DNA of 64,000 bases from a virus: positions 64,001-128,000 of IMG/VR virus record IMGVR_UViG_3300045988_126140; one strand, written 5' to 3'. The position numbers were made by a program, and so were the translations under genes. Below the pieces are notes generated by a model that worked only from the letters and a program-made list of their open reading frames with translations, made no database searches and was not told where the DNA came from. Positions 1-63,593 of this stretch are shown here, one piece after another; within the stretch, counting starts at the first letter, position 1, and every line of letters begins with the position of its first letter.

Positions 1-3000
1 CTGTTTTGAAAACTGTTTAATACTTCGTCTATATTACTTACATTTCCTTCTACATCAAATGTGAAACCATATTTAGATAAACTTTCTTGATATGTAGGAA
101 TCTTATTTTTCATATTAGTCATTAAATCCATTTGTTTAGATAGTTGTTCATTCATGAGTTTTAATTTTTCTTCTGTTAATTTAATTGTATCTACTCCATT
201 TGAATTTTCTAGTTTAACATCTATTATATCAATTTTATTTCCTAGTATATCAAATTGATTTTTTAATTTAGTTATGGCGTTGCTAAATTTATACAATTTA
301 TCTTCTCTAGTTAGCTTTTCAATTTCGTCATTATTTTCTTTGATTGTATTTTTCATTTCTTGCCATTGTTCTTCACAACTAAATAAATCACTTTGTTGTA
401 TATCATAATATTTATTAGCTAAATTTGTAAGTTTATCCAATTCTTCTTTATATTTACTAGCTTTATCACTTGCTGTATTATTTGAAGAACTACTAGAAGA
501 GTTACTTTTAGAAGATTTATCAGCTATATCTTGAAGTCGTTTATATTCTTTTTGCATAGCTAATAATTTTTCTTCATAGTTAGTCATATTCCCATCTTCA
601 TTAAATTGGAATCCTTCTTTTTGAAGCTTTTGTTGAAGTGTTTCTCTTTCAGAAATTAAATCGTCATAATATTCCTTTTGAAGTTTTGCTTGTTCTTCTA
701 GTAATTTATTTTTTTGTTTAAGGTATTTAATTTTTTCAGTACCTACTGCTTTTTCCATTTGTTTATCTAATAATGAAGTCTTCTTAGTTACTGTTTCAAT
801 TCTGTATTGCAATTCTTTAAATAGTTCAACAGAGTATTCAATCATATCTAATACATCTTGATATTTAAGACTTATAGGAGTTAAAGCAGTTTCTACATCA
901 CCTATGCTATTAAAATCTCTCGTAGCATATGTACTTATTCCACCAGAACCATCTGAAGTAGGAGTTGCTGTGTTTGCATCATTTGCAGTTACTACAGGTT
1001 GTGGAGTTACCATCGGTGTAGCACTCAACTGCTCTACAGAATAAGGATTATCTTCTATATTAGAAAATTCACCTATAGAATCTCCCCACATTACTGATTT
1101 TCCCTTTCCACTATGAGGAACTTTTGATTTACCTTTTTCTGTATAGGTTAAAGTAGCCATTATTGATATACTTCGTGGTATTTCTTTTATTTGTTGTTTC
1201 AAACTATCTAGTTTGCTTGCTACATCGGCACTATTACTAATTATTTTAATATATTTCTCTGGAATTTTTAATCCTTGAAGTGCATAAAGTTGCTGTAATG
1301 CTTGAAAAGCCATTACGGTAACATCTACAACTTTATTTTTTAATTGTATAGCATCTACAGTTCCAAGTTCATCTAATGCGTTAGATAATGCTACTCCAAC
1401 TTCAATTTGTTTTTCTGCTGGTAATCGCCCTATTAAGTCCATTACGGTTGCTATGTCACCTTGAGCTAAAGCTTTATCTATTTTTACTTTTATGTCTTTT
1501 TCATCTTTTTTATTTAATAGACTATCTATTTCAGCTTTAGCAGTTTTTATTGTATCTTCACCTAAAACATTTATATGACAACTTGTTACTGCTTCTGGAT
1601 GGTTAAATACCCATTGAATCATGTCTTCATAAGATTCTAATTTAGATAAATCTTCAATGTTATTTTTAAAGAATGTTTCAATGTCTTTATCTTTACCTCT
1701 TAAATTATCCATTAATTTGGCATAATTTTCAACTTGGTCAGTATTTTCTATATTCGCTCTTAAAGTTTTTACTATTTCATCTTTTCCGTCAAATTGTTTA
1801 AAACTTGCAAAAGCGTCATCTATTTTCTTTTTATCGTCATCAGATACAGCATATTCTCCTGTAACAAATAATTTACCTACGTCTATTTTACCTTTTCCAA
1901 ATTGTTTATCTACAAGATTTTGAACGTCTTGAATTAAATTATTTCTAGTTTCTTCATCATCTTCTACATAAATTTGAGATAATTTAGCTGTTAATTCCAT
2001 ATCGTCTAAAGAAAATTCATTGTCATCCATCAATCGATTTACCAAGTCTTTTACTTTGTCTGGTAAATTACTATCTTCTAAAGTGGCTTTAACTTCTTTG
2101 ATGTTATAAACCATTTTTCCGTCTTTTTCTACTGTATCAAGACCACTTAAATCTTGAAGAAAATTATTGTAAGCGTCCCATGTTGCCATTAAATCTTTAG
2201 TTTCTTTATCTGTCATGTTTATGTTTTTACCAAAAGAACGTAAATAAGCATCCATAGCATTTTGAGCCATTTTAGCACTTTCTGGCAATTCCACCATACT
2301 TCTAGCTACATCTTCATTTACTCCCCATAATTTAGCTAAAGAAGGGATTAATTTTTCAATTCCTTGTTCGTAAGCAGTAATGTCGCTTGTGTCTGCATAT
2401 GCTTGTTGCAAATCATACAATTTTCTTATTGACTTATCTATTGTTCCAGAATCAAACATTTTCTTCATATTTGATTCAAATAAACTTTGTTGTCCACTTG
2501 TTAATTGAGAAAAATCTAATCCATTTACAACTTCTATCATTTCAGATTGAACGTCACTTTTTAATTTACTAAAACCATCACCTATAGACAAAGAGTTTAC
2601 TATACTTTTATTTATTTTTTGAGATTCGGCACTTATTTTTGCTTCGGCATCTACAACTGCCTCTTTAGCACTAGCGTAAGTATCACTTAATTTAGCAAGC
2701 CTTTCTGAATAATCTTCTAGCCATGCTGAATCACCTGTTTGAGTAAATGTATTGTTAAGTTCACTTTTCTTTTTTCTGATGTTTTCTATTTGTCTATTAT
2801 ATTCCTTAATTGCTTGTTTATTGAAAGCCCCATCTTTACCAGCAAATCCTTGTCCTTCATTCATTTTGTCTGTAGCGTTTCTTTGTTGGTCTTTATATTC
2901 TTGATTCAGAGCCTCTTGTTGTTTCTTGATTAATTTATCATATTTTGCAATTAATTTATCAATATCTCCACCCATCGATAAAATCGGGTTATTATCTTTA

Positions 3001-3014
3001 TCATACAATATCTT
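1..3014 (-). CDS. tail tape measure protein, last exon visible (ORF runs off the window at position 1)
   Basis: I translated the minus strand by hand. It is open from 3014 to position 1 (KILYDKDNNPILSMGGDIDKLIAKYDKLIKKQQEALNQEYK...). It is coiled-coil-like and rich in K/E/Q/L. It is absent from the ORF track, probably because no stop falls inside the window. It follows in frame from the upstream exons once the intron is removed. Confidence 0.7.
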
Positions 3015-3362
3015 CACATAAGGTCGTTAATCTTATGCAGTTCTCTTATGAACTTCTCTAGTTTTCACTAGACGTTGAGACTATATCTTTACCTATTACT
3101 AGGCACATACCGCTTCCACTCACTTAAGTGTACTCTCTTTCGAGATAGTCGTTGAAGTTTAATTATTTTATTAATTATTTAAATTAAATCTTTTAAACAA
3201 TTAATAAAATAATTCTTACCTGCTGATTGCCCAATCCTTAAACTTTTTAAAACCATCACGCTTATCATTGCTAATTACGTTGTGGTATTAAGGCTCTAAG
3301 GGGTTTCCAGCAATTCAATATGTTTTCTAATAATAATTTCTTATTATAGGGGCTATTTATTA
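3015..3362 (-). ncRNA. group I intron, family A, in the tape measure gene (boundaries +/- a few nt)
   Basis: The minus-strand RNA carries all four classical group I core elements. P-like AAUUGCUGGAAA, Q AAUCAGCAGG, R UUCAACGACUA and S AAGAUAUAGUC, with GACUA/UAGUC able to form P7. A GNRA hairpin UCUC-GAAA-GAGA follows R. The 5' exon ends GGGU and can pair with GCCC 10 nt downstream, giving the U-G wobble. The intron ends in G. A stop codon lies just inside the intron, and removal restores the reading frame. Confidence 0.75.
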
Positions 3363-4253
3363 ACCCAAGACAATATCTTCGCCACAAATATCAATTATTT
3401 GTTGTTGTAACTCTTTAAATCTTTCTTGCTGTTCAGAAGTTTTATCTACTGTATCGTATAATTTTTTATATTCGTCTCTAATATTTGAAAGATTTGTTTT
3501 TGCTTTTGTTGAGCTATTTACTTTATTGTTTAAATTGGTTATATTTTCTGCATTTTCTTCTAAAGCATCATTAAGTTTATTAGCCTCGTCTGTAAAATGT
3601 TGAATAACTTTACCTATTCCCCATGATACGAGCATACCTATACCCATATTTACAACGCCCATAGCTAAATTCATAGCTCCTAAAGCTATTTTTGTTCCTA
3701 ATGCTTTAGCCTCTACACCTGCTAAAGCACTTCTAACTGCTGTTAATCCAGAGGCAAATACCCCAGATGATTGACGAGCTTCTTTAAATGAAGTACCTAT
3801 TCCTTTTATTACATTCCAAGATTTTCCAAGATAACTAGCTTGAAATCCTTCTCTTATTGTTGCAAAGAATCCTGGATTAGTAGTTCCAATCATTGTAGCA
3901 CTAGATGCTTGTCGTGTTGCAGTGGCTTGTCCTTCTAATGCAGTAGTTGTACTTAAAGCTTCGGCTTTTAATCTTCTTTCTTGATTAATTAATGCTTCAA
4001 ATCCACCGCTTCGATTAAATTTTAATGATTGAAAAAGACCAGAAATTGCACCTGCTATTACGGGTAATCCTACACCCATGTCATCTATATACTTAACAAA
4101 TTTATCTAACATGTCTAAAGCGCTTATACCAATGTCTAAAAATCCTTTTGCCGTATTTCCACTTACAGCAGTATTGACTATACTTCTCCATTTTTCTTGA
4201 AGTAATGTAAGTTTCCCTTGTACGGAGTCTATATATCTTGCATTCGTTATCTT
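3363..4253 (-). CDS. tail tape measure protein, exon 4
   Basis: This is track ORF 3360..4256 trimmed to the inferred splice sites. Ala/Gly-rich hydrophobic segments are typical of tape measure proteins. Confidence 0.7.
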
Positions 4254-4645
4254 CACATAAATTCGCTACATCTATGCAGTTCTCTTATGAACTTCCTATA
4301 CTTTCATATAGAGTCGAGACTATTTCTTCACCTTCAGCATTATCTGTTAAGGGCAAAGTATTTCCACTATCAATAGCTTATAGTGTACGGTTTCACAACC
4401 TAGTCGTTGAAAGTTTAATCTAATTTATTAATTATTTTTAAATCTTTAAATGATTTTTAACTGTATTAGATTAATACTTGCATGAACACCCATTGTTTAA
4501 GATTACTTAGGATTTAACCATATAATCATCCTTACGTTTTTTCTACTTTCGTACCTTCACGCTTATTGTTGCCAATTACGTTGTGGTGTAAGGCTTTAGG
4601 GATTACCTGCTTTTAACTTTGTGTCCTACGCACATTTCTGTACGT
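4254..4645 (-). ncRNA. group I intron, family A, in the tape measure gene (5' end uncertain, 4641-4650)
   Basis: It shares R (UUCAACGACUA), S-like (GAAGAAAUAGUCUC) and the 3' tail with the 3015..3362 intron. Its 5' half matches the capsid-gene intron (UAGGACACAA..GCAGGUAAU..UAAAGC..UACACCA). The hairpin after R covaries: GGUU-GUGA-AACC. Confidence 0.65.
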
Positions 4646-4769
4646 ACGGAGAATGTTGTTTCTCTTTCATTGAAGAGCCGAAAGTGTCACCATTTTCGTA
4701 CTCTTTCATAAATTTTTCAGCTTGACTCCAGTTACTCATTATTGCTGTGAAAACATTTAACTGGTTTTT
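4646..4769 (-). CDS. tail tape measure protein, micro-exon 3 (about 40 codons, ends approximate)
   Basis: An open stretch, KNQLNVFTAIMSNWSQAEKFMKEYENGDTFGSSMKE..., lies between two intron-like elements. It continues the '...AEAIAG' motif of exon 2 in the manner of tape measure core regions. Confidence 0.5.
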
Positions 4770-5107
4770 CGGTTTATTATCGTAAAGGCTTTTTATCCTC
4801 TACTTCTTATAGTTTCCTATAAGCCTAGCATACATTTTCACCCTCGTTTAACGTTAGGTATTGATGGTTGCAAACCCATCTCAAACATTACTATATAATG
4901 CTGTGGAGGAGGCTCGTGGTAGGATTATTGCTAACAATATCGCTCACCTACTATGCGTTACGGATGTTCTCTGTTAAGACACCCTCGGTATTACCACTAT
5001 CCATACAGGACTTAGGCTCTCTTACCACCTTAATCTTTTGATTTAGTTGACCGATACACCCCTCTAATCTACATGATATTTCTACCATGAGTGGCAAAAA
5101 TAATTTT
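4770..5107 (-). ncRNA. group I-like intron, family B, in the tape measure gene
   Basis: It shares blocks with the introns at 5279..5609 and 25922..27337: GGGG..AUCGGUC, GGUAAGAGAGCCUAAGUC, UAAUACCGAG and the 3' tail GAUAAUAAACCG. The upstream frame meets a stop shortly after the inferred 5' splice site. The core is less clearly canonical than in family A. Confidence 0.55.
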
Positions 5108-5278
5108 ACCTGCTATCGCTTCAGCTACAGAAGATTTACTTTTCTTATCTAACTTGTCCCACATTCCTGCTATATCACCCATGATGTCATAGAAATCTCT
5201 AACTTGACCATTTGAGTCATGCATATCAATTCCAGTTATTTTTTCTATAGCCATTGCTGTTTTATTCATTGAAATACT
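5108..5278 (-). CDS. tail tape measure protein, exon 2 (conserved core)
   Basis: SISMNKTAMAIEKITGIDMHDSNGQVRDFYDIMGDIAGMWDKLDKKSKSSVAEAIAG resembles the conserved core of TP901-type tape measure proteins. The N-terminal 20 codons of track ORF 5069..5338 are intron sequence. Confidence 0.65.
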
Positions 5279-5609
5279 CGAATTGTTATTATCATGAAGT
5301 TTTTTATCTTCATCTCTGGAAGTTTCCTTCATTTTCATCGATTGGTCATTTCCAATCCAGTCTGGCGTACATATTCCATCTTATATAAGACAGTCGGAGA
5401 CTCTTGGAGGGATTATATTCTAATTTAGGTTCACCCTCTACGCTCTACATTATTAAATAAGTTTTAATTTATTCAATTAACTCGGTATTAACTTATCTTT
5501 ATTAATTATTTTTAAGACTTAGTCTTTCTTACCATATGTATTACTACATATACGACCGATTTTCCCCGAACCGGCAATATTATTTACCGTCTTTAGCACT
5601 TGTTTTCCA
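5279..5609 (-). ncRNA. group I-like intron, family B, in the tape measure gene
   Basis: The 5' exon end GCUGGU can pair with GCCGGU about 30 nt downstream, giving a U-G at the splice site. There is a GNRA hairpin AUAUGUA-GUAA-UACAUAU. The intron ends ...AAUAACAAUUCG. It is collinear with the terminase intron but lacks that intron's ORF. Confidence 0.6.
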
Positions 5610-7616
5610 ACCAGCCATATTTTGCATGATTGTTTTTAAACCATTACCTAATTTACTTGCATTTTGTAACGGTTCTTGACCTGCAATTATAATACCAACT
5701 AACTCTTGCATACTAACGCCTAATGTTTTTGCTACGGAAGCTGAACGCATCATTGCTTCAGATACGTCTTTACCTGTAACAGCATAGTTGTTGTTTGCAT
5801 AGTTGACCATATCCATCATTTGCATCATTTTGGTAGTTTCTTTGGTGTTACCTTTGACTTTCATTGTGACTTTATCTAATGAGTTTGCAACACCACCATA
5901 AGATGCTAATGTTGATTTCAAGTATTTATCTGCATCTGCTTGGCTTGTATCTATAACGTTGGCAAACATAGATGCGTTTTTAGCATATTGTAAAGCTTTG
6001 CTGACATTATGGAAACCAGATTGTAATGCCTCGGCAGTGGAATCAATTATATCAATACTACTTCTGGCAACCTCTTGACCTGCCTCACTTGCTTTTTGAG
6101 TTAACCAATCTAATTGTTTAGCTGTTCCTGTAAAGGTATCTGGTGCAACCTTTAATAATTTTTTAATTGCTGTATCAGTATCAACAATAGTCTTAGGGAT
6201 TGAAGATATAGCTTGAGTAATAACTCTAGCAAACATATTCGGTATTGAATACATTGACAACATAGAGGATAGAGAACTGAAAAATCCCGACGTTTTTCTA
6301 GTTGTATTTCCTAGTATATTCATTGCTTGAGTTGCACTTCTAGCACTATTAGTAACTCCGTTTATACCATTTCCGTTAATATTAGATAAACTACTAGAAA
6401 AAGTACTCACATCTTTAGTTAACGCTTTTAATTCTGCATCTCTATCTTTTAAATTACTCATATTAGCTATCGTTTGCAATCTTTGTCTAAATTCTTCTAT
6501 TTTAGATGACGAAGCTCCTAACTCTTGACATCTTCTTGTTAGGTTCGTTAAATCTTGAGATACTTTATTAAAATCTGCATCAAATTTTACATTAGCTCTT
6601 TTAGTAGAAATTTCACTCTCAAATTGTTTATATTTATTTTCACATTCCGATATTTTATTTTTTAAACCATCAAATTCAGCTTTAGCACCTTCTGTATTAG
6701 GGTCTATATTTCGCAGTTTTGATTGATATTGTTCTATTTGAGTTATTAGCTCTTGTATTCCAGATGTATTAGCAAATTTACTCGTTCCTAATTCAGCAAG
6801 TTTAGCTTTAAGAGATTCTAACTTAGCGACAGATGTATTTACCTTATCAGTGAATGTAATTGAGCCGTTTAATCCTTTTAATGATACTGAAACATTACTA
6901 ATCTCTGCATTTAAATTATGTATTTGTTCATATGCCTTGTCGGATTTTAATATTTGACTTAAATCAGCACCTTTAACATTATTGATTTTATTTTGAAGTT
7001 CTTGGAGTTGCCCCACCTGTGAACTTGTTAAGTTTTTATTTTTGAACATATTGTTAATTTGTTCAGAGGTGTTATTAGCCTTTTGTTGAATTTTATCAAA
7101 TGAACTTATTAAATCTCTACTTATATCTATATTAGATTTATTTTTTAAGTTATCCATTTTTTGTGCAGTAGATTGCATCTCGCTGTTAATTTTTGACAAC
7201 TTAGATTCTAACTCGTTATAAGCTTGAGTATTTATAGTTTTAGACATTTGTTTTTGAAGTGATTCTGATTGTTTTTGTAAAACTTTATATTTAGCTATAG
7301 TATTATCTAATTCTTTATTACCAGTAGAAGTCTTAGTAGAACCACTGCCAAATAAATTTTTCTGTACGTCTTTACTTAAAGAATTTATTTCTTTCAAAGT
7401 ATTCTGTATCTGCTTAAGATTGTTTAATTGGTCGTCTTTAAGTTTAAAAGCATTATTTAATACTTTTTGAAGTTCCTCCATTTGAGATTTCATTTTTGTC
7501 GTATCAAATTTCAGATTAACTTCTTTTTTTTCTAATTTCTCTTTCAATTTTGCAACTTCTTGTTCTGCTCCACTTCCGTCTACAGAAGTTTTTAATCTAA
7601 TAGTTAAATCTGCCAT
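5610..7616 (-). CDS. tail tape measure protein, exon 1
   Basis: This is track ORF 5580..7616 trimmed at the inferred 5' splice site. A long coiled-coil N-terminal part is followed by ...GNGLKTIMQNMAG, which continues into exon 2. Confidence 0.75.
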
Positions 7617-15036: not shown

Positions 15037-15059
15037 AAGTTAAAATTTATTAATTATTT

Positions 15060-15569
15060 TTATACACTTGCTTTATCTTCTTCAAATGTCATAAAATCTC
15101 CATTTGTATCAGTACCTATATCAAAAGTTACAGAATAAGTTTGTAAATCTAATGAACTTGTACCAAAGTCTTCAGTTATTTGTGGAGTACAATTAGCTAT
15201 TGTTGCATTTAATATTTTTCTTGTACCATCTGGGAATTTTAATTTCATTTTTCCTGTATAAGTATAAGTAGTAGATGGAGAATCACCTATATGTACTTTA
15301 CCTTCTGCATCTTTTGTAGCTCCTAAAGTAACTAAGAACATATCAAAATTCATAACTTCCATTTCTGCTGTGAAAGTCATGGCTTTATTTGCTTTTAATG
15401 TTATTTTATTTTTACCATCAGCTCTAGCATTTAAAGTGTCTTCTGATTGACCTAAATTAAATGCATTTACATAATCTAATGCTACGTCTTTATCTGTTCC
15501 AGTTTCACCGTTTGGATGAAGTTTCCCTTGCATAGCACCTTCTATTACGAATAAAGTTTCTTGTGCCAT
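15060..15569 (-). CDS. major tail (tube) protein, putative
   Basis: A 169-aa ORF rich in beta-type residues. It has a strong RBS and its own terminator, and it sits after the neck genes. Assigned by position and composition only. Confidence 0.5.
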   Translation of the reverse strand: MAQETLFVIEGAMQGKLHPNGETGTDKDVALDYVNAFNLGQSEDTLNARADGKNKITLKANKAMTFTAEMEVMNFDMFLVTLGATKDAEGKVHIGDSPSTTYTYTGKMKLKFPDGTRKILNATIANCTPQITEDFGTSSLDLQTYSVTFDIGTDTNGDFMTFEEDKASV

Positions 15570-18963: not shown

Positions 18964-19104
18964 TTAGTTTTGTATTTTTATTATAGCGTAAGTAGAAGCT
19001 ACAGCTACACCTAAATGTACCATACGGTTCATTTCCATTTCGATTTGATAATCTTTTCTAGCTCCAGTAGTATCTTCGTTTAATTCTACATCGCCTAATC
19101 TTCG
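18964..19104 (-). CDS. major capsid protein, exon 2 (46 codons)
   Basis: I translated RRLGDVELNEDTTGARKDYQIEMEMNRMVHLGVAVASTYAIIKIQN* by hand. It is in frame with exon 1 after removal of the intron-like element. It is too short to appear in the track. Confidence 0.6.
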   Translation of the reverse strand, partial: RRLGDVELNEDTTGARKDYQIEMEMNRMVHLGVAVASTYAIIKIQN

Positions 19105-19501
19105 CATAAGGTCGTTACTCTTATACCGTTCTCTAAGGAACTGCTCATGCTTTCACATGAGAGGAGACTATTTCTTCACCCTATATTTATAGGGGCAACC
19201 CACTTCCGCCCACTTGGGTGTACGAACTTGCGTTCTAGTCGTTGGAGTTTTTCCTCGTTATATTATAAATTTATTTATAACAGGGGAACTTACCTGCATG
19301 AACAGGGATTGTAATGAATTTAATCATCTAGTGTTTAGGATTTAACCATGCACCATCTCTACGTTTTTTCTACTTTCGTGCCGTTACGTTTTAGTTTTCA
19401 CTATCCGCTTTGGTGTAGAGCTTTACCCATTACCTGCAATTCAAGTTGTGTCCTATACCGATTGCTCGATATACGAGGCGTTAAGCTACGTTTAGCTCGT
19501 T
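19105..19501 (-). ncRNA. group I intron, family A, in the major capsid gene (boundaries +/- about 8 nt)
   Basis: R is CCAACGACUAG. The covarying GNRA hairpin is GAAC-GCAA-GUUC. S-like is GAAGAAAUAGUCUCC. The 3' tail CGACCUUAUGCGAAGAU is nearly identical to that of the 3015..3362 intron. The 5' exon AGGU can pair with GCCU. Track ORF 19348..19638 (+) is an intron shadow. Confidence 0.7.
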
Positions 19502-20950: not shown

Positions 20951-22225
20951 TTATTTTTTGTTTTTCCATTTTTCCAATCTACCACCGTAAGGTGCATTAG
21001 AATCCGTAAATTCTTCATTTGGATTTATTATACCTACTGAATTAGCTTTTCCATGTTTAGTTTTACTAAATGATTGAGCTTCTTTAACTTGTTTAGCCCA
21101 CATTATAGCTAATTTTCCTTCATATTCTTCTTTAGATATTTCATGTTTTAATACTGTGTCTTGAAGTACTTTAGCATCTTCTGTATCTAAAGAATATTTT
21201 TCAGTTATAGAATCAATTTCTAATTTAAATTGTTTAGCATCGCTATCAGCTTTAAATTGTTTTAATTCTTCATAATCACTCATGTTTTCTAATTGAGTTT
21301 TTAATTCTTCATATTCAACTTTTAATTGGTCAAAAGCAGTTTTTAATTGTGCATATTTTTCATCTTCTGTGTTATCTTCAACAGAATGATTTTCCTTATC
21401 TTTATCTTCTTCCTCTTCTGAACAATCTTCTTTCTTTTCTTCAGAATTATCTTGAGAACATTCTTCTTTTTGTTCTTCTTCATCTGGAGTGAAATCTTCT
21501 TGTTGAGTTTCCTCTTGATTTTCAAATTCTTCAGTTTCTTGAACTTCTTGATTTTCAAACTCTTTGTCCATTGTTTCACCTCCCTTTTCTAAAGAATAAA
21601 TTTTCTTCATTTTTTCTAATTCAGTTTTAACATCTCCACAAGTGAACAGAGATAAGTTAGCTCCTGCCATAGCAGGTTTAACACCTACACCAAGCATTGT
21701 TATACCTAAAAAAGTAAAATCAGTTATTTCAAAGAATCCATCTTCTCTAAAGCTGAAATCGTCAACATTTATTTCCATAGATACTTCTAATACACCATCG
21801 TTAGAATCTAATATATCAAGTAATTGTTGGGAATACTCCCTCCATATTAATGCTGTGCAAGATAAATATTTCTTACCGTCTTTTTCTACTTGTGTAATTA
21901 TAGTATCTTCTGGAACAAATCCATAAGCTTTTTCAAGGTATATTAATTGATAGTCATAACCATCTGGAGTATCAGTAGCCTCCATTTTAGTATCATGTCC
22001 ACCTAAAACCCATTTGTCATCTTCATTTTTATAAACATGAGCTAATAAGGGTATGCCTCTAATACTTTTTTCAGCACATTTCATTTGTGTTTCTGAATCA
22101 AACCAAGAACCATTTAAATTATCTTGGTCGTGGCATGCAAGTATTCTACAGGGAACGAATCTACTATCACTTGAAGATTTAAAAACTTCCATTTCACTAT
22201 ATAATTTTAAATGTTTATTTCCCAA
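20951..22225 (-). CDS. scaffolding-type head assembly protein
   Basis: A 424-aa ORF. It has a central, extremely acidic low-complexity stretch (EEFENQEETQQEDFTPDEEEQKEE...) and a coiled-coil C-terminal half. It lies upstream of the capsid gene. Confidence 0.5.
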   Translation of the reverse strand: MGNKHLKLYSEMEVFKSSSDSRFVPCRILACHDQDNLNGSWFDSETQMKCAEKSIRGIPLLAHVYKNEDDKWVLGGHDTKMEATDTPDGYDYQLIYLEKAYGFVPEDTIITQVEKDGKKYLSCTALIWREYSQQLLDILDSNDGVLEVSMEINVDDFSFREDGFFEITDFTFLGITMLGVGVKPAMAGANLSLFTCGDVKTELEKMKKIYSLEKGGETMDKEFENQEVQETEEFENQEETQQEDFTPDEEEQKEECSQDNSEEKKEDCSEEEEDKDKENHSVEDNTEDEKYAQLKTAFDQLKVEYEELKTQLENMSDYEELKQFKADSDAKQFKLEIDSITEKYSLDTEDAKVLQDTVLKHEISKEEYEGKLAIMWAKQVKEAQSFSKTKHGKANSVGIINPNEEFTDSNAPYGGRLEKWKNKK

Positions 22226-22249
22226 TTCTAATTCACACCCCCTTTCTTC

Positions 22250-22435
22250 TTAGAAAAATAATTTATTAGAAAACATGAATTTTCTTTTATCTTCATTACT
22301 GAATTTAACTTTAGTACTATTAAGAAAAATATAAACAGTTTTATTATCTATAATACCTTCAGATAAAAACACTAATCCTCGATTTAAAAGTTCATGTTTA
22401 TCTTCTTCATTAAATGCATATATGAATTTATTCAT
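22250..22435 (-). CDS. hypothetical protein
   Basis: A 61-aa ORF in the operon. Confidence 0.45.
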   Translation of the reverse strand: MNKFIYAFNEEDKHELLNRGLVFLSEGIIDNKTVYIFLNSTKVKFSNEDKRKFMFSNKLFF

Positions 22436-24801: not shown

Positions 24802-25921
24802 TTAATTAGCCAAGAAAATATGTCTCTTTTTCTTATTCCTATTTTTCTTTCTTATATCTCTTTCTATCAATTCTGCTAAATAATTACCATAAGTAATAGA
24901 AGAATATCTATCCTTACGATTTCTTCCTTTTTCTTTAAGAACTATATCACCATTCCCCATAGTTTCATAATCTAAGTTTATTGATTCAAATATAAAATTA
25001 GATGTTTGAATAAATGGTGCTATTTTATTAGCATGATATTCTGCGTCTTGATGATATTTTAAGTCTTTACTAAAATCTCCTCTTTTTTCATTTTCTTCTA
25101 TTAATAATCTTATTTTTTTACTACTAAAAGCATTTTTAAGATATACTGCACAATCATTATTTATTTTTTGATTCCCTTTAATTACATATATACAATTTAT
25201 ACCATTTTTTAAAGGTTGAAAATCTTTTGATTGCGTACTCATATCATAAATACCAAAAGGTTCGTAATGTTCATCAATATTTTCGTCATAAGATGATTTT
25301 TCCATCTCTTGTATTACTGCTATACCTAAACCACCACCATCTATAATGATTTTATCAGCTTTAAATTCTGTATATAATCTCTTAATTCTAGTGGCTTGTT
25401 TTTCAAATTTCATACCATTATGTGATTCCATATAAACAACTTCTCTAATAATATTATTTCCACTAGGAAGTAATCTCCATAAAGTAAAAATAGAGTTATC
25501 ATTTTTATTTGATTTGTTAGCTTTTGCCGTTGCTACGTCAACTGAAATTATTCTTATTTCATCTTTCTTTTTAGGCATTCGTTTTAATTTTTCTTTCTTT
25601 TTATCTGGATTCCTATAATCGTCGTCCGTTAATGGATAATAACAATTCTTTAAAACTCTTGCATTCAACATATCTGCTGTATTAAAGAAACAATCTCCAC
25701 TTTGTCCATGCCATATAGCACCATATTCCATATTAAATACAAATTCACCCATATCCTCTTTATCTTCTTCAATCTTATCTTTTAAGACAAGTTTATGGTC
25801 TAAAGATGCCAAATAAGGAATTGCACAAGCAAATGCTTTTCCATTTTCAAACATTCTATTAAATATGGTTGTGAATTTTTCATAACTCCAGTGAACTTTT
25901 AACCACGCACTAGAAAGATAT
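24802..25921 (-). CDS. terL: terminase large subunit, exon 2 (nuclease half)
   Basis: This is track ORF 24802..25854 extended upstream to the inferred 3' splice site. The joined sequence reads ...PLESNMEI|YLSSAWLKVHWSYEKF.... Confidence 0.7.
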
Positions 25922-26175
25922 CAATTTGTTATTAACTATAGGTTTTTTATCCTATACTCTGGAGGTTTCCCTCATTTTCATCGGTTAGTCAATTCTAACC
26001 CAGTTTAGCATATATTTTCATTCTCTAAATTCTGTATAATGAATGTAGGATACTCTTGGGATACTAATTTTAGTATGTAAAATAATTACGGCATTATATT
26101 CTGTGGAGGGTAATTATCCCTCAAACAGTTTCAGCCCCTATGCGTTACAATACTTATAGTTTTTAAACATATAAG

Positions 26176-27156
26176 TTATCTCGGTATTAGCTTATTTATA
26201 AAATAATCATTTAAAGTTTTAATTGTATTTTCATAATAAGGTATTCTTAACATATTTATATTATTACTTTTACAATAATTATTTTTAATTCCATCTTTAA
26301 TTATTTGGATTTTAAATCCTTCTTCTCCTCCAAATAATTCTACTGGCATAAAATGTTGTCTACCATCGTATTCAACAACTAAATTATAATTAGGAATATA
26401 AAAATCAAATCTTAGTACATCATTATATTTACAATCATTGAATATGTATTCTCTTTCAAATCCAATATTTTTACTTAATAAATATTCCAGAATTTCTTGT
26501 TCCCCTTTGCTAATTGTAGCTTTTGACATTTTGTCATATCCTTTTCTAGCCATACATTTGGGGCAAATTATTTCAATATTGTTTTTAATTTTATCTTTAA
26601 TGTGATAAAAATTTTGCTCATATTCTTTTCCACATTTACATTTTAATTTTAATTTTTCGCCTGGAATATATTCAGTAGACAATAATTCACTTTCACCAGT
26701 ACTTTCACATATAAGTTTTACGTCATGGAAACTACAATAATGTCCATTATTGTTTTCTATATTTCTTTGTTTTCTTATTTTTTCAGCACATTTAGGACAA
26801 GTTTTTGTTTTACTTTTTTTAAATAATTCCCATGTTGTTTCATAAGTTTCACCACACGTTCCACATTTAACTAATAGTGAAGTATATACATTTTTATATT
26901 CAGTTGAAAGTAATTTATTACCATAAGATTCAATTTCACTTCTAACTTTATCTATACTCACTTTGTTATTAGAACAAGTTTGACAATAATATCTTTTTTT
27001 ATTTTTAAAATCTTGAAAACTTCTTTCAAATACATCTCCACATTTACAACGAATTTTCAATTTTTGTTTGTTATTAATATACTCTTTAGTTAATAAGGTA
27101 CAACCTTTTGATTCTATATATTCCTTAACTTTATCATAATCATATCTAACTCCCAT
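26176..27156 (-). CDS. intron-encoded nuclease: three zinc-ribbon repeats plus a PD-(D/E)xK (Vsr/DUF559-like) C-terminal domain
   Basis: Three repeats of Y..x..L.(I/V)(K/R)C.CG..(F/Y)E....F.....C..C are present. The C-terminus reads RFDFYIPNYNLVVEYDGRQHF. The ORF lies wholly inside the intron. Confidence 0.6.
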   Translation of the reverse strand: MGVRYDYDKVKEYIESKGCTLLTKEYINNKQKLKIRCKCGDVFERSFQDFKNKKRYYCQTCSNNKVSIDKVRSEIESYGNKLLSTEYKNVYTSLLVKCGTCGETYETTWELFKKSKTKTCPKCAEKIRKQRNIENNNGHYCSFHDVKLICESTGESELLSTEYIPGEKLKLKCKCGKEYEQNFYHIKDKIKNNIEIICPKCMARKGYDKMSKATISKGEQEILEYLLSKNIGFEREYIFNDCKYNDVLRFDFYIPNYNLVVEYDGRQHFMPVELFGGEEGFKIQIIKDGIKNNYCKSNNINMLRIPYYENTIKTLNDYFINKLIPR

Positions 27157-27978: not shown

Positions 27979-28801
27979 CCTCCTCTGTATAAGGAGTTGA
28001 ATCATTATTTATTAACTTTTTAATAGGATTTAAGAAGTAACGATTTAACCACCATTTAATTCTATCCACATCATCGTATTCTTGGTGGACATCTGGAATA
28101 GGTTCATTTTTTTCTACTTTAGCAATTAATGTACCATAACTTAAATTATCGTCTTCACCATATTTGCTCATTTTAGATGGTAAAACATTTAGTTCTTCCA
28201 TACGTTTAGAAATTTGATTAGTTAAGTTTTCAAATGCTTTTTGGTCATTCTTAACTATAGCTCTTTCTCTTAAAACTTCTAACATACATATTGTTTTAAT
28301 TAAATTAACTTCTTGAATGGCTTTAGACGGATAATTATCTGTGTATTGTTCATATTTTCTTTGGAGTAATTCATACTCATCATCTTGAAATCCCTTACCC
28401 CAAAAGTTAACAATCTCACTTGAAGTAACTGTCTCTCCAGTAATAATATTAGTTACACCATCATAAGTAAGCATATTATCTAAAGATGTTAACCCTTTAA
28501 ATGCTTTATCTCTATTCATTATTCTAGTATAATTACCTAAAAAATTATTGCCATATTTCTCAACACATTTTAGATATGTTTCTTCGTCATAATACATATC
28601 TAAAACCATACATAAATGTATAAATGCTAATCTACGGTCGTTGTTATAATTTTTTAATAACTTTTTAAAATATTTATCAACTACTTCTTTACTCATGGGT
28701 AATTTCTTATCATGCTCATAAAGCATTGATTGTGTAGAGTAGAAATCTCTAACGGTAGGTTTAAATTTACCTGTAGCTGAACATTGTTTTGTGTCTGCCA
28801 T
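27956..28801 (-). CDS. terminase small subunit, putative
   Basis: A 281-aa ORF immediately upstream of terL and overlapping it. Assigned by position only. Confidence 0.45.
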   Translation of the reverse strand: MADTKQCSATGKFKPTVRDFYSTQSMLYEHDKKLPMSKEVVDKYFKKLLKNYNNDRRLAFIHLCMVLDMYYDEETYLKCVEKYGNNFLGNYTRIMNRDKAFKGLTSLDNMLTYDGVTNIITGETVTSSEIVNFWGKGFQDDEYELLQRKYEQYTDNYPSKAIQEVNLIKTICMLEVLRERAIVKNDQKAFENLTNQISKRMEELNVLPSKMSKYGEDDNLSYGTLIAKVEKNEPIPDVHQEYDDVDRIKWWLNRYFLNPIKKLINNDSTPYTEEDEKGYGE

Positions 28802-28956
28802 TATATCACTCTCCTTTAAAATGAAAAAAAATGGTTACGACTAATGGAAGGAGTTTTTAGCCGTAACCTAAAGGGGAGAATTTATTATGAATTTTGAGCC
28901 TTATTTTAAAGACTCAAAAAATACTGATATAATTATCAATATCATTTCAATCCTTA

Positions 28957-28989
28957 AAATAAAAATACCACTCTTATTCGAGTGGTTTA
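28957..28989 (-). terminator. intrinsic terminator
   Basis: On the minus strand: ACCACTCGAATAAGAGTGGT followed by ATTTTTATTTT. Confidence 0.7.
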
Positions 28990-28994
28990 ATTAA

Positions 28995-30122
28995 TTATTC
29001 AACTTTCATTACATAACTTGCAACTACTCCATCTTCATCAAGTATTAATAATGTTTGAGAAGGTTTATTATATAATTTTTTCTTCATAGCATAATCGTCT
29101 GTTGAAATCAAACTACCATTTACATATATATCTGTGTTATATTGTGAAAACATCTTAGGTTGATGATAATGTCCTAATAAAATTAAATCTATGTTTTCAC
29201 CACCTATAACCATAGATAATTCTTCACTTACTTTATTTAAATTAACTTGGTCGCCATGACATGAAACAACTGTATTTCCTTTTACATTCATTACAGATAA
29301 TTCACCATTATTTATCGAATCTAAAAATACAACATTAGATAAATTTAATGTTCTCATTTTTATCATCTCATTTAATAACATAGAGTAATTATTACCATTA
29401 CTTCTATCGTCTTTCATCATTTCTACTGCTTCATGGTTACCATTATTTTGAGTTACAGTTAAATAAAAATAATTTGACAATTTCTCTATTACCTGTGATA
29501 TTATTTCACTAACACTTACTATTTGTTTTACTAAAGATTCTTGATTAGATAGCTTTATACTATTATGTAATTCACCAGATATTAAATCTCCGTTCAATAC
29601 TAAATGCAATTTATCTATGTTATTATCAATACAATGTTCTATTGTTTTATTAATTATTTTATCTAACCTTTCTATAGCTATATCTTTATTATATTTATTT
29701 ACTGAATTTTCTACAATCATAGAAATATGTAAATCGCTTAATATTAAAATTCCGTCTTTTCCACTTGAATCTTCTTTTAAAACATAACGATTTAATAATG
29801 GACTTCTTAAATTTAAATTATTAATTTCTTCTCTTATTAAATCCATTACATTTTCCATCCTAGACAATCCTCTTAATTGTCTATTCACTTCTGTTCTTAA
29901 ATCGGTTAGCTTTATTTTTTCCTTTTTTATTTCAGCTAATGTTTTACTGTCCATGTCATTTTCACTTATAGTTTCAGAATATAATTTAAATCCATATGCT
30001 AATTTTCTTAAATGGTCGTCTGAATAATCTGTTTCGTATTTTCTATTTATATCTTCCCATGACATATCATTTAATTTATTAAGTTTATTTAAACAATCCT
30101 GTATTAATCCCTTTTTATTCAT
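28995..30122 (-). CDS. calcineurin-like metallophosphoesterase
   Basis: The motifs LILSDLH, NGDLISG, GNHE and GHYH appear in canonical order. Confidence 0.75.
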   Translation of the reverse strand: MNKKGLIQDCLNKLNKLNDMSWEDINRKYETDYSDDHLRKLAYGFKLYSETISENDMDSKTLAEIKKEKIKLTDLRTEVNRQLRGLSRMENVMDLIREEINNLNLRSPLLNRYVLKEDSSGKDGILILSDLHISMIVENSVNKYNKDIAIERLDKIINKTIEHCIDNNIDKLHLVLNGDLISGELHNSIKLSNQESLVKQIVSVSEIISQVIEKLSNYFYLTVTQNNGNHEAVEMMKDDRSNGNNYSMLLNEMIKMRTLNLSNVVFLDSINNGELSVMNVKGNTVVSCHGDQVNLNKVSEELSMVIGGENIDLILLGHYHQPKMFSQYNTDIYVNGSLISTDDYAMKKKLYNKPSQTLLILDEDGVVASYVMKVE

Positions 30123-41415: not shown

Positions 41416-41467
41416 ATAAACATAAACAACAACAAAAAAATAATTAATAAAAAATTAAAAAAAGTTG

Positions 41468-62719: not shown

Positions 62720-63502
62720 ATGAGTGAAAAAACAATAGGTAGAACAGGTGAAACAGCTTATAATAAATTTGGAAGCGAGATGATAATTATTGATTATAAA
62801 GGATGTATGGACGTAGATGTTTATTTTCCAGAATATAATTGGACCTTTAAAAATGCACATTATAGTAGTTTTAAAAAAGGAAATATTAAATGCCCTTATG
62901 AGAGGAGATATTATGAAGTTGGATATTTAGGAGAAGGAAAATATAAAGTAAGTGAAAATGGTAAACATACCAAAGTTTACCAAACATGGCACGATATGTT
63001 GAGAAGATGCTATGACGAAAAAAGTCTTAAAAGAAATCCTACTTATATAGGCTGTAAGGTAGATAAAGAGTTTCATAATTTTCAAGAATATGGAGAATGG
63101 AGCGAAGATAACTATTATGAAATAAAAGAAGAAAAGATGTGTCTTGACAAAGACATATTAGTTAAACATAATAAAATCTACTCACCAGAAACCTGTATAT
63201 TTGTACCGCAAAGAATAAATACTTTATTTACAAAAAGAGATAGTAAAAGAGGAAATAATCCAATAGGTGTTTCAGATTATATAAATGGTAAGTATGTAGC
63301 ACAATGTCATATAATTAATCCCGAAACAGGAAAATCAAAATATGAATGTTTAGGTGTTTATGAAACTCAACTTAAAGCTTTTGAGGTGTATAAAGAATTT
63401 AAAGAGAAAAATATCAGACAAGTAGCTGACTATTACTTTGGTTTAATCCCTAACAAACTATACAATACTTTATATAATTATGAAGTTGAGATAACAGATT
63501 AA
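62720..63502 (+). CDS. homing-endonuclease-like protein, paralog 5 of 5
   Basis: It carries the same signature and is the most diverged copy. Confidence 0.55.
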   Translation: MSEKTIGRTGETAYNKFGSEMIIIDYKGCMDVDVYFPEYNWTFKNAHYSSFKKGNIKCPYERRYYEVGYLGEGKYKVSENGKHTKVYQTWHDMLRRCYDEKSLKRNPTYIGCKVDKEFHNFQEYGEWSEDNYYEIKEEKMCLDKDILVKHNKIYSPETCIFVPQRINTLFTKRDSKRGNNPIGVSDYINGKYVAQCHIINPETGKSKYECLGVYETQLKAFEVYKEFKEKNIRQVADYYFGLIPNKLYNTLYNYEVEITD

Positions 63503-63593
63503 AAATAATTAATAAAATTTATTAGAAGGTATTGACTTTCTAGTAAATACTTTATATAATATGTAGTATAAGATAAACAAAGGGGGAGAAAAT

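Follow-up and report, generated by a model that had tools for sequence, protein, structure and literature searches.

A micro-exon between putative mobile group I introns of two families in a phage tape measure gene

Introduction

How can a phage gene yield its full protein when two introns of different sequence families lie in it almost back to back, with only a micro-exon between them? This question is raised by positions 4,254 to 5,107 of a 64-kb stretch (hereafter the window, meaning the whole 64,000 nucleotides (nt) analysed) of the viral record IMGVR_UViG_3300045988_126140, where a tape measure gene runs on the minus strand. We propose that four mobile group I introns, in the order C, B, A and D along the gene, independently invaded it and would be spliced separately, C and B belonging to one family (B-type) and A and D to another (A-type). 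In this proposal, to which we give a probability of about 0.88, the insertion of B and A 108 nt apart would have left the micro-exon.

Results

The tape measure gene and its exons

The gene is seen in the window as four minus-strand open reading frames (ORFs), 7616..5580, 5338..5069, 4739..4626 and 4256..3360. When exon 1 was compared alone with the TIGR01760 profile, it matched with 44.2 bits, and exon 2 matched separately (profile positions in Table 1). The conceptually spliced protein matched the profile in a single stretch, from position 4 to position 344 of 349, with 78.6 bits. The layout of the elements, together with this continuity after splicing, is far beyond chance. All exons are in phase 0, and all four introns stand at codon boundaries.

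We then compared the gene with other phages. By tblastn against GenBank phages, the nearest tape measure proteins are those of phiCD211, phiCDIF1296T and AR1086-1, which are large Clostridioides difficile phages, at about 41% identity, and homologous genes without interruption were found in Bacillus phage Tsamsa and Enterocloster phage CB473P1. The spliced protein aligns gapless across the B and A junctions with the tape measure proteins of phiCD211, Tsamsa and CB473P1. In a multiple alignment, the window's AIAGK/NQLNVFTAIMSNWSQAEKFMKEYENGDTFGSSMKE/NARYIDSVQGK (here and below, a slash marks a splice junction) is gapless against the contiguous AISGKNHINTFFAIMDNWSQTKKFQNDFLNGEVFGSAEKENERFINSAEGK of phiCD211. 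A close genome was found among GenBank phages neither by tblastn nor by megablast, the matches of the latter being intron cores of 50-150 nt only, and a contig scan of 185,579 representative genomes found no relative.

Relatives with and without the introns

A scan of IMG/VR gave 17 related contigs (L006-L022, mostly 114-140 kb). In exon DNA, 14 of the 17 share 93-97% identity with the window, and L020-L022 about 80%. The presence or absence of introns C, B, A and D varies independently among them. L008 is free of all four, and L006, L007 and L009 carry D only. L010, L011 and L013 have B and A without C; L018 and L020 have C and B without A; L012 has neither C nor A and carries B with an endonuclease gene. 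D is missing from L022, and all four introns are present in L014, L015 and L019, as in the window.

Because intron-less and partly intron-less alleles exist, the limits of B, the micro-exon and A are fixed to the base and do not depend on the reading of motifs. The empty sites, GCAGGA/AAAAACCAG and ATGAAAGAA/AATGC, match the conceptually spliced window base for base. At B, the upstream exon ends with GGU at 5108 and the intron ends with ...AAACCG at 4770; the predicted spliced junctions are GGU/AAAAAC at the B site and GAG/AAUGCA at the A site. A sequence-only reading of this DNA had placed an element of one family at 4770-5107, which the intron-less alleles show to be exact, and an element of a second family at 4254-4645; the second element exists, with true limits of 4245-4661, so that its 3' end had been misplaced by 9 nt and its 5' end by 16 nt. 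That reading was also right in seeing two separate intervening sequences of two different families, both of which have group I anatomy. It had suggested a comparison with intron-less homologous tape measure genes; in L006-L009 the micro-exon is contiguous with both neighbouring exons.

Intron B belongs to a family missed by the Rfam model

We read intron B as a group I intron of a family not covered by the Rfam model. Its structure was derived from, and tested on, 43 distinct B-type members, with two kinds of controls: pairing partners slid by 1-3 columns, and 500 shuffles. The helices follow the order P2, P3, P4, P5, P4', P6, P7, P7.1 (enclosing a hairpin), P3', P8, P7', P9 and P9.1. Standard pairs fill 92.7% of the cells, against 31-44% in the slid controls. 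Changes on both sides are seen in 38 of 55 pairs, and the covariation scores 0.563, about 0.1 being the level of the controls. None of the 500 shuffles came up to these figures. In P3, pairing reaches 96% over the 43 sequences, and all five pairs show changes on both sides. Thus B has the conserved group I core from P3 to P9, with the P3/P7 pseudoknot and the P4-P6 domain. P7 is invariant inside the B-type alignment and covaries only between families, as judged by sequence inspection and profile search: its equivalents are GCAUA with UAUGC in B, GCGUA with UACGC in C, and GACUA with UAGUC in A. Another candidate for the P7 of B, AGCAU...AUGCU, was rejected, since AGCAUUA and UAAUGUU form a covarying local hairpin. 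A subgroup could be assigned to B only by analogy, from the IA-like helices between P7 and P3'.

The ends of B are those of a group I intron. The last exon base is a U paired with a guide G (GGU/AAAA...UUUUGCC), and L020 and L021 share a compensatory P1 variant, GGUAUAU with AUAUGCC. The exon ends in GGU in intron-bearing alleles, versus GGA in intron-less ones. The terminal (omega) G at 4770 is kept in 10 of 10 alleles. The folding z-score of B is -2.66, and its fold was better than 100 of 100 dinucleotide shuffles.

B also has the features of a mobile element, with an optional homing endonuclease gene and empty sites in L006-L009. Its alleles in L012, L017 and L022 hold, in the P1 loop, an ORF of 272-287 amino acids with two LAGLIDADG motifs. 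In the window, the tape measure frame enters B for 13 codons and ends with ATHGRNIM and a stop, which is the tail of the sibling LAGLIDADG ORF. The intron-less site GCAGGAAAAAACCAG is a candidate target for the LAGLIDADG protein of L012 or L017.

The family is large: 333 GenBank phage records, from Staphylococcus, Listeria, Bacillus and Clostridium, contain a match of 75-94% identity to the last 70 nt of B, and a pattern made from the 3' segment of B finds at least 119 B-type loci in IMG/VR. We also noticed two unannotated B-type introns in named phages. One, in Staphylococcus phage ROSA (7639-7839), follows closely on an HNH endonuclease ORF of the head-tail region; the other, in Arcanobacterium phage TPWB06 (about 22160-22418), lies immediately upstream of the annotated tape measure coding sequence (CDS). 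B-type introns are thus widespread yet missed by RF00028, and annotation splits the genes that they interrupt into separate ORFs, examples being phiCD211, ROSA and TPWB06.

Intron A is related to intron D

Judged by its sequence, intron A is homologous to the Rfam-positive group I intron D of the same gene. An nhmmer profile made from the A alleles found D at E 1e-30, and another A-type intron of the window, near 19.1-19.5 kb, at E 1.5e-43. RNAalifold was given an alignment of nine A alleles, intron D, the copy near 19.1-19.5 kb and two introns of named phages, that of AR1086-1 and the annotated one of phiCD211. The consensus contains P1, P2, P3, two hairpins between P7 and P3', P9, P9.1 and P9.2, and 36 of its 56 pairs show compensatory change, with P2, P3, P9, P9.1 and P9.2 all compensated. 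CAACGACUA and AUAGUCU, which we take to be the classical R and S elements of the group I core, respectively, are invariant in this alignment. The 3' end of A, ...GAAGAUAACG, carries the omega G, and its tail is homologous to those of D, the copy near 19.1-19.5 kb and the AR1086-1 intron. A folds with a z-score of -3.21, better than 100 of 100 dinucleotide shuffles.

For the 5' splice site of A, two candidates had been put forward from the letters alone, one after CAUUCU and one after CCGUACGU, the latter thought to pair with GCGUAGG. Both are wrong, since the intron-less alleles end the exon at GAG and the junction is GAG/AAACAAC. CCGUACGU and GCGUAGG form instead P2 with its GAAA loop, in which double changes are seen in L021 and L022 (C-G to U-A and C-G to G-C).

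At the A site of a more distant relative, L146, the intron (949-2350) contains a 1.1-kb ORF. In AR1086-1, an A-type intron (locus 3366-3646) is inserted at GCGAU/UUCAGG, 7 nt upstream of the window's B site; therefore, different intron families target neighbouring sites in the conserved AIAGK motif.

Introns C and D, and the guide sequences

Intron C is a diverged B-type intron, matched by the B-family nhmmer profile at 5287-5499 (E 1.7e-16). It overlaps the start of exon 2 as drawn in the ORF track, so that the residues MKMKETSRDEDKKLHDNNNS are intronic. Intron D is matched by Rfam Intron_gpI with 76.4 bits (gathering score 50; E 9.8e-19) in a 5-kb search. When the whole 64-kb window was searched with Rfam, at the gathering threshold and at E<=0.1, no match was returned, which is a filter effect: because the filters of a 64-kb search drop a 76-bit intron such as D, this silence is not evidence of absence. 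Routine annotation would miss every intron in the window. In L020 and L021, D carries insertions of about 700-900 nt.

In all four introns, guide sequences located at intron nt 5-15, just upstream of P2, span the ligated junction, a layout of P1 plus P10 that is typical of group I introns. Those of B and A are given in Table 1; in C, AAUAUUGCCG pairs with CGGU/AGUAUU, and in D, AUAGCCC pairs with GGGU/UAU.

Table 1. Features of the tape measure gene of the window, of three endonuclease-bearing B alleles and of the phiCD211 counterpart
Feature	Position	Strand	Description
Exon 1	5586..7616	minus	ATG at 7616, ends ...GAC GGU; ORF 5580..7616; TIGR01760 positions 4-186; junction from the C-less L006-L013
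Intron C	5279..5585	minus	307 nt, B-type; absent from L006-L013, present in L014-L022
Exon 2	5108..5278	minus	171 nt, 57 codons, phase 0, SISMNKTAMAIEK...AEAIAG; TIGR01760 positions 190-240; gapless against AR1086-1
Intron B	4770..5107	minus	338 nt, read as B-type group I, without ORF; absent from L006-L009
B internal guide sequence 5'-UUUUUGCC-3'	5093..5100	minus	forms P1 on GGU, where U.G marks the splice site, and P10 on the AAAAA at the start of the micro-exon
B P7, 5' strand GCAUA	4952..4956	minus	pairs with UAUGC at 4828-4832
B P3, 3' strand CUCCU	4907..4911	minus	pairs with AGGGG at 5059-5063, giving the P3/P7 pseudoknot
Micro-exon	4662..4769	minus	108 nt, 36 codons, phase 0 at both ends; KNQLNVFTAIMSNWSQAEKFMKEYENGDTFGSSMKE
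Intron A	4245..4661	minus	417 nt, A-type group I, without ORF; absent from L006-L009, L012, L018 and L020
A internal guide sequence 5'-CAUUCUC-3'	4649..4655	minus	exact complement of the ligated GAG/AAUG; invariant in 12 IMG/VR contigs
A P2 hairpin CCGUACGUACA-GAAA-UGUGCGUAGG	4625..4649	minus	compensatory changes in L021 and L022; more in L149
Exon 4	3363..4244	minus	882 nt, 294 codons, phase 0, NARYIDSVQGK...; ORF 3360..4256; from alignment and intron-less junctions
Intron D	3006..3362	minus	357 nt, A-type, canonical GGGU/UAAU...GCCC P1; absent from L008 and L022
Exon 5	1..3005	minus	putative; leaves the window at its left end, so that the track lists no minus-strand ORF; collinear with relatives to about 570
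LAGLIDADG-bearing B allele, L012	3860-5070		
LAGLIDADG-bearing B allele, L017	4170-5380		
LAGLIDADG-bearing B allele, L022	4170-5395		
phiCD211 B-type intron	28580-28867		unannotated; nhmmer E 1e-60
phiCD211 micro-exon	28868-28900		33 nt, EKVGTALKTIG
phiCD211 annotated group I intron	28901-29175		sole Intron_gpI of the record; span by the junctions of this analysis

Proposed splicing and the unusual pair at intron A

After transcription, each intron would fold as its own ribozyme domain. Its guide would form P1 with the end of the upstream exon and P10 with the start of the downstream one, and guanosine-initiated transesterification would remove the intron and ligate the exons, so that exon 2, the micro-exon and exon 4 would be rejoined in frame. 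The introns would spread by homing at the DNA level, as suggested by the LAGLIDADG gene in the P1 loop of B siblings and the 1.1-kb ORF of an A sibling. When a 929-nt precursor containing B, the micro-exon and A was folded, 215 of the 273 pairs of the minimum free energy structure were inside one intron, and none joined A to B, which makes the independent folding of two ribozymes plausible. In-frame stops are met 13-14 codons into both introns, B and A.

Several points weigh against four separately spliced introns. The splicing of B and A, and its autocatalysis, are predictions made from sequence. Guide pairing is a weak statistic for each intron taken singly, being reached by 1-4% of shuffles for C, B and A and by 53% for D. 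A search of B (381 nt) with RF00028 gave no match even at E<=10. The same model also misses ten other B-type loci (L029, L034, L038, L040, L072, L076, L087, L090, L095 and L101), and because the structural features of a group I intron are found in B, we regard its miss as a gap in the model and not as evidence against a group I intron. A has a partial Intron_gpI match only, over its 3' half (4295-4431; 31.5 bits, for an RF00028 gathering score of 50; E 2.7e-5). Finally, a U.G pair is near-universal at the 5' splice site of group I introns, and A does not have it: its junction is GAG/AAA (4661/4662) and its guide CAUUCUC (4649-4655).

This last point depends on the exact junction. Read from the empty sites, the A junction is ambiguous by 2 nt (AA), and only GAG/AAA...ACG/AAU gives an intron-terminal G; therefore, the last exon base before A is a G paired with a guide C. 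Other junctions combining a U at -1 with an intron-terminal G were tried, and were rejected because they bring stops, frameshifts or insertions of 3-10 residues unseen in homologues, and have no guide. In the A-type alignment, columns 10 and 21 hold G-C in the A alleles versus U.G in intron D and in phiCD211 intron 2; the rows of the copy near 19.1-19.5 kb and of AR1086-1 are cut or misaligned at these columns, and by eye both have U.G. The sequence GAG/AAACAACAUUCUCC recurs in 12 IMG/VR contigs, and in three of these the tape measure gene is more distant.

The Anabaena intron no longer reacted once the U.G pair at its splice site had been inverted to G.U (PMC12355055). Since G-C replaces U.G in A and that inversion abolished the reaction in Anabaena, efficient self-splicing of A is not assured. 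In the literature on natural splice sites without U.G, our search turned up only this Anabaena mutagenesis, and no survey. The G-C pair lowers the confidence in an efficient canonical splicing of A, not in its sequence homology to group I introns.

Could intron A then be a crippled or helper-dependent ribozyme, which would be slow, need a protein or cellular factor, or limit tape measure production? The G at -1 and the guide C in all A alleles speak for it, as do the Anabaena result and several Bastillevirinae introns that were spliced only in vivo (PMC11878797). On the other hand, an essential gene has kept A in at least 13 alleles, with its core helices intact and with compensatory changes, which implies adequate splicing. 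Moreover, the exon ends in GAG in 10 of 10 A-bearing alleles, versus GAA in 6 of 7 A-less alleles, suggesting selection for the G-C pair. We find a crippled A rather unlikely, although it deserves attention. The odds look even to us that A works naturally as a group I ribozyme with its 5' site set by a G-C Watson-Crick pair, in at least 13 phage contigs including a more distant lineage of the tape measure gene. If so, its wobble-receptor chemistry would differ from the textbook case, or a helper factor would take part. The G-C pair of intron A offers a natural and directly testable exception to the U.G rule.

The micro-exon is coding and conserved

The segment between B and A had been described as a coding micro-exon of about 120 nt or 40 codons. 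It is real and coding, and its size is 108 nt, or 36 codons; the peptide then quoted is an exact match to the translation (Table 1). The micro-exon is open and in frame in all 16 relatives covering that segment, the intron-less ones included. Compared with the intron-less alleles, 12 of its 108 nt differ, mostly by synonymous changes, and only one residue does. Because 12 nt but one residue differ, the micro-exon is coding and under purifying selection with or without introns. Its peptide (KNQLNV...SSMKE) is gapless against KNHINTFFAIMDNWSQTKKFQNDFLNGEVFGSAEKE of phiCD211, and it encodes a part of the conserved TIGR01760 core, which supports the earlier idea that both introns must be removed for a correct tape measure protein. 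It had also been said that skipping the micro-exon would keep the frame, or nearly so; it keeps it exactly. A twintron or nested intron was also considered; it is ruled out, since intron-less alleles keep the 108 nt that separate B from A, this segment is coding, and B occurs without A.

If the whole 863-nt stretch 5107..4245 were excised as one unit, the main tape measure product would lack the 36 residues. Such skipping would be in frame, and it has precedents: the dominant variant of the SIOphi terminase has its internal exon skipped, and skipping is also documented in Twort orf142 (PMC11878797). Yet the micro-exon stays open with mainly synonymous change in all intron-bearing alleles, it encodes conserved core positions kept in intron-less homologues, and alleles with B but not A exist (L012, L018 and L020). 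In addition, the P10 part of the B guide, UUUUU, fits the AAAAA with which the micro-exon begins and not the AAUGC with which exon 4 begins. The conserved TIGR01760 core, the purifying selection and this P10 match argue against skipping as the main predicted product, and we hold the excision of a single unit to be very improbable.

That the insertions stay unspliced, the gene being made as separate polypeptides or being a pseudogene, is scarcely credible: the annotations of phiCD211 and AR1086-1 do list the pieces as separate CDSs, but the pieces are without plausible starts (the micro-exon has none in context), every exon is in phase 0 and collinear with uninterrupted homologues, the downstream exons are open for more than 1000 codons in 17 relatives, and the insertions contain covariation-supported ribozyme cores.

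With separate splicing of B and A as the favoured reading, the in-frame micro-exon provides a simple assay for exon skipping in a protein that acts as the tail-length ruler.

Comparison with known systems

Such an arrangement is already known in phages; the window is a well-documented further example, and the novelty first implied for it was overstated. Phage genes with more than one group I intron, small internal exons and the skipping of exons have all been published, from phages such as Twort, SIOphi and phiNIT1 (PMC11878797). In Twort, orf142 is interrupted by three group I introns and shows exon skipping (Landthaler and Shub 1999, cited through PMC11878797). This tail tube gene is, like that of the window, a structural gene that holds several group I introns, with short exons between them and possible skipping between neighbouring introns. 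Unlike Twort, the window has four introns of two families in a tape measure gene, its splicing is a prediction, and its intron A is without the U.G pair. The phages of PMC11878797 also have a small exon between two group I introns, found there by complementary DNA (cDNA) reads, and in these phages splicing linked the 5' site of one intron straight to the 3' site of the following one. Their genes are those of DNA metabolism and packaging, with introns found by Rfam and GISSD models, whereas the window has a tail gene and one family invisible to Rfam.

The closest parallel is, by our reading, the tape measure gene of phiCD211/phiCDIF1296T (NC_029048.2), where a B-type intron, a micro-exon and an A-type intron also follow each other (Table 1). 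This pair lies about 80 codons upstream of the window's site, at ..VQNA/EKVGTALKTIG/INMSG..., and its micro-exon is of 33 nt, not 108. AR1086-1 is contiguous across the site of the phiCD211 intron pair, thus serving as the intron-less reference there. From these predicted junctions, the two 'tape measure' CDSs of the phiCD211 record are one gene with three exons.

Among classical introns, D resembles those of T4 td and SPO1 pol (phage IA2, RF00028) by its GGGU/UAAU 5' junction, its R and S elements and its 76 bits. A shares with the phage IA2 introns the R and S elements and P2, P9, P9.1 and P9.2, and differs by the G-C pair at the cleavage site. B has a helix order like theirs, with P7.1/P7.2-type helices between P7 and P3'; unlike them, its P7 is GCAUA with UAUGC, the remaining core sequence is diverged and RF00028 does not match it. 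The window and its relatives provide a clean, population-resolved case of one essential structural gene in which group I introns have accumulated, with homing sites and junctions known to the base.

Other introns and a repeated element in the window

Two further introns were detected on the minus strand outside the tape measure gene. One is the A-type copy referred to above, at about 19074-19498. The other is of B-type (about 25912-26215; E 9e-26) and lies between the ORFs 26176-27156 and 24802-25854. The gene that it interrupts is probably the large terminase gene, as the ORF 24802-25854 weakly matches Terminase_6C.

The 16-mer AAAAATAATTAATAAA has 48 sites in the window with at most one mismatch, versus 0.34 expected, for instance at 4424-4439, 5498-5513 and 15046-15061 on the minus strand and at 41436-41451 and 63501-63516 on the plus strand. 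It is always on the coding strand, which is the minus strand up to 35 kb and the plus strand from 41 kb. Copies are found inside introns A and C, and, in relatives, directly upstream of the LAGLIDADG ORF. From this distribution, AAAAATAATTAATAAA looks like a phage-specific promoter-type element.

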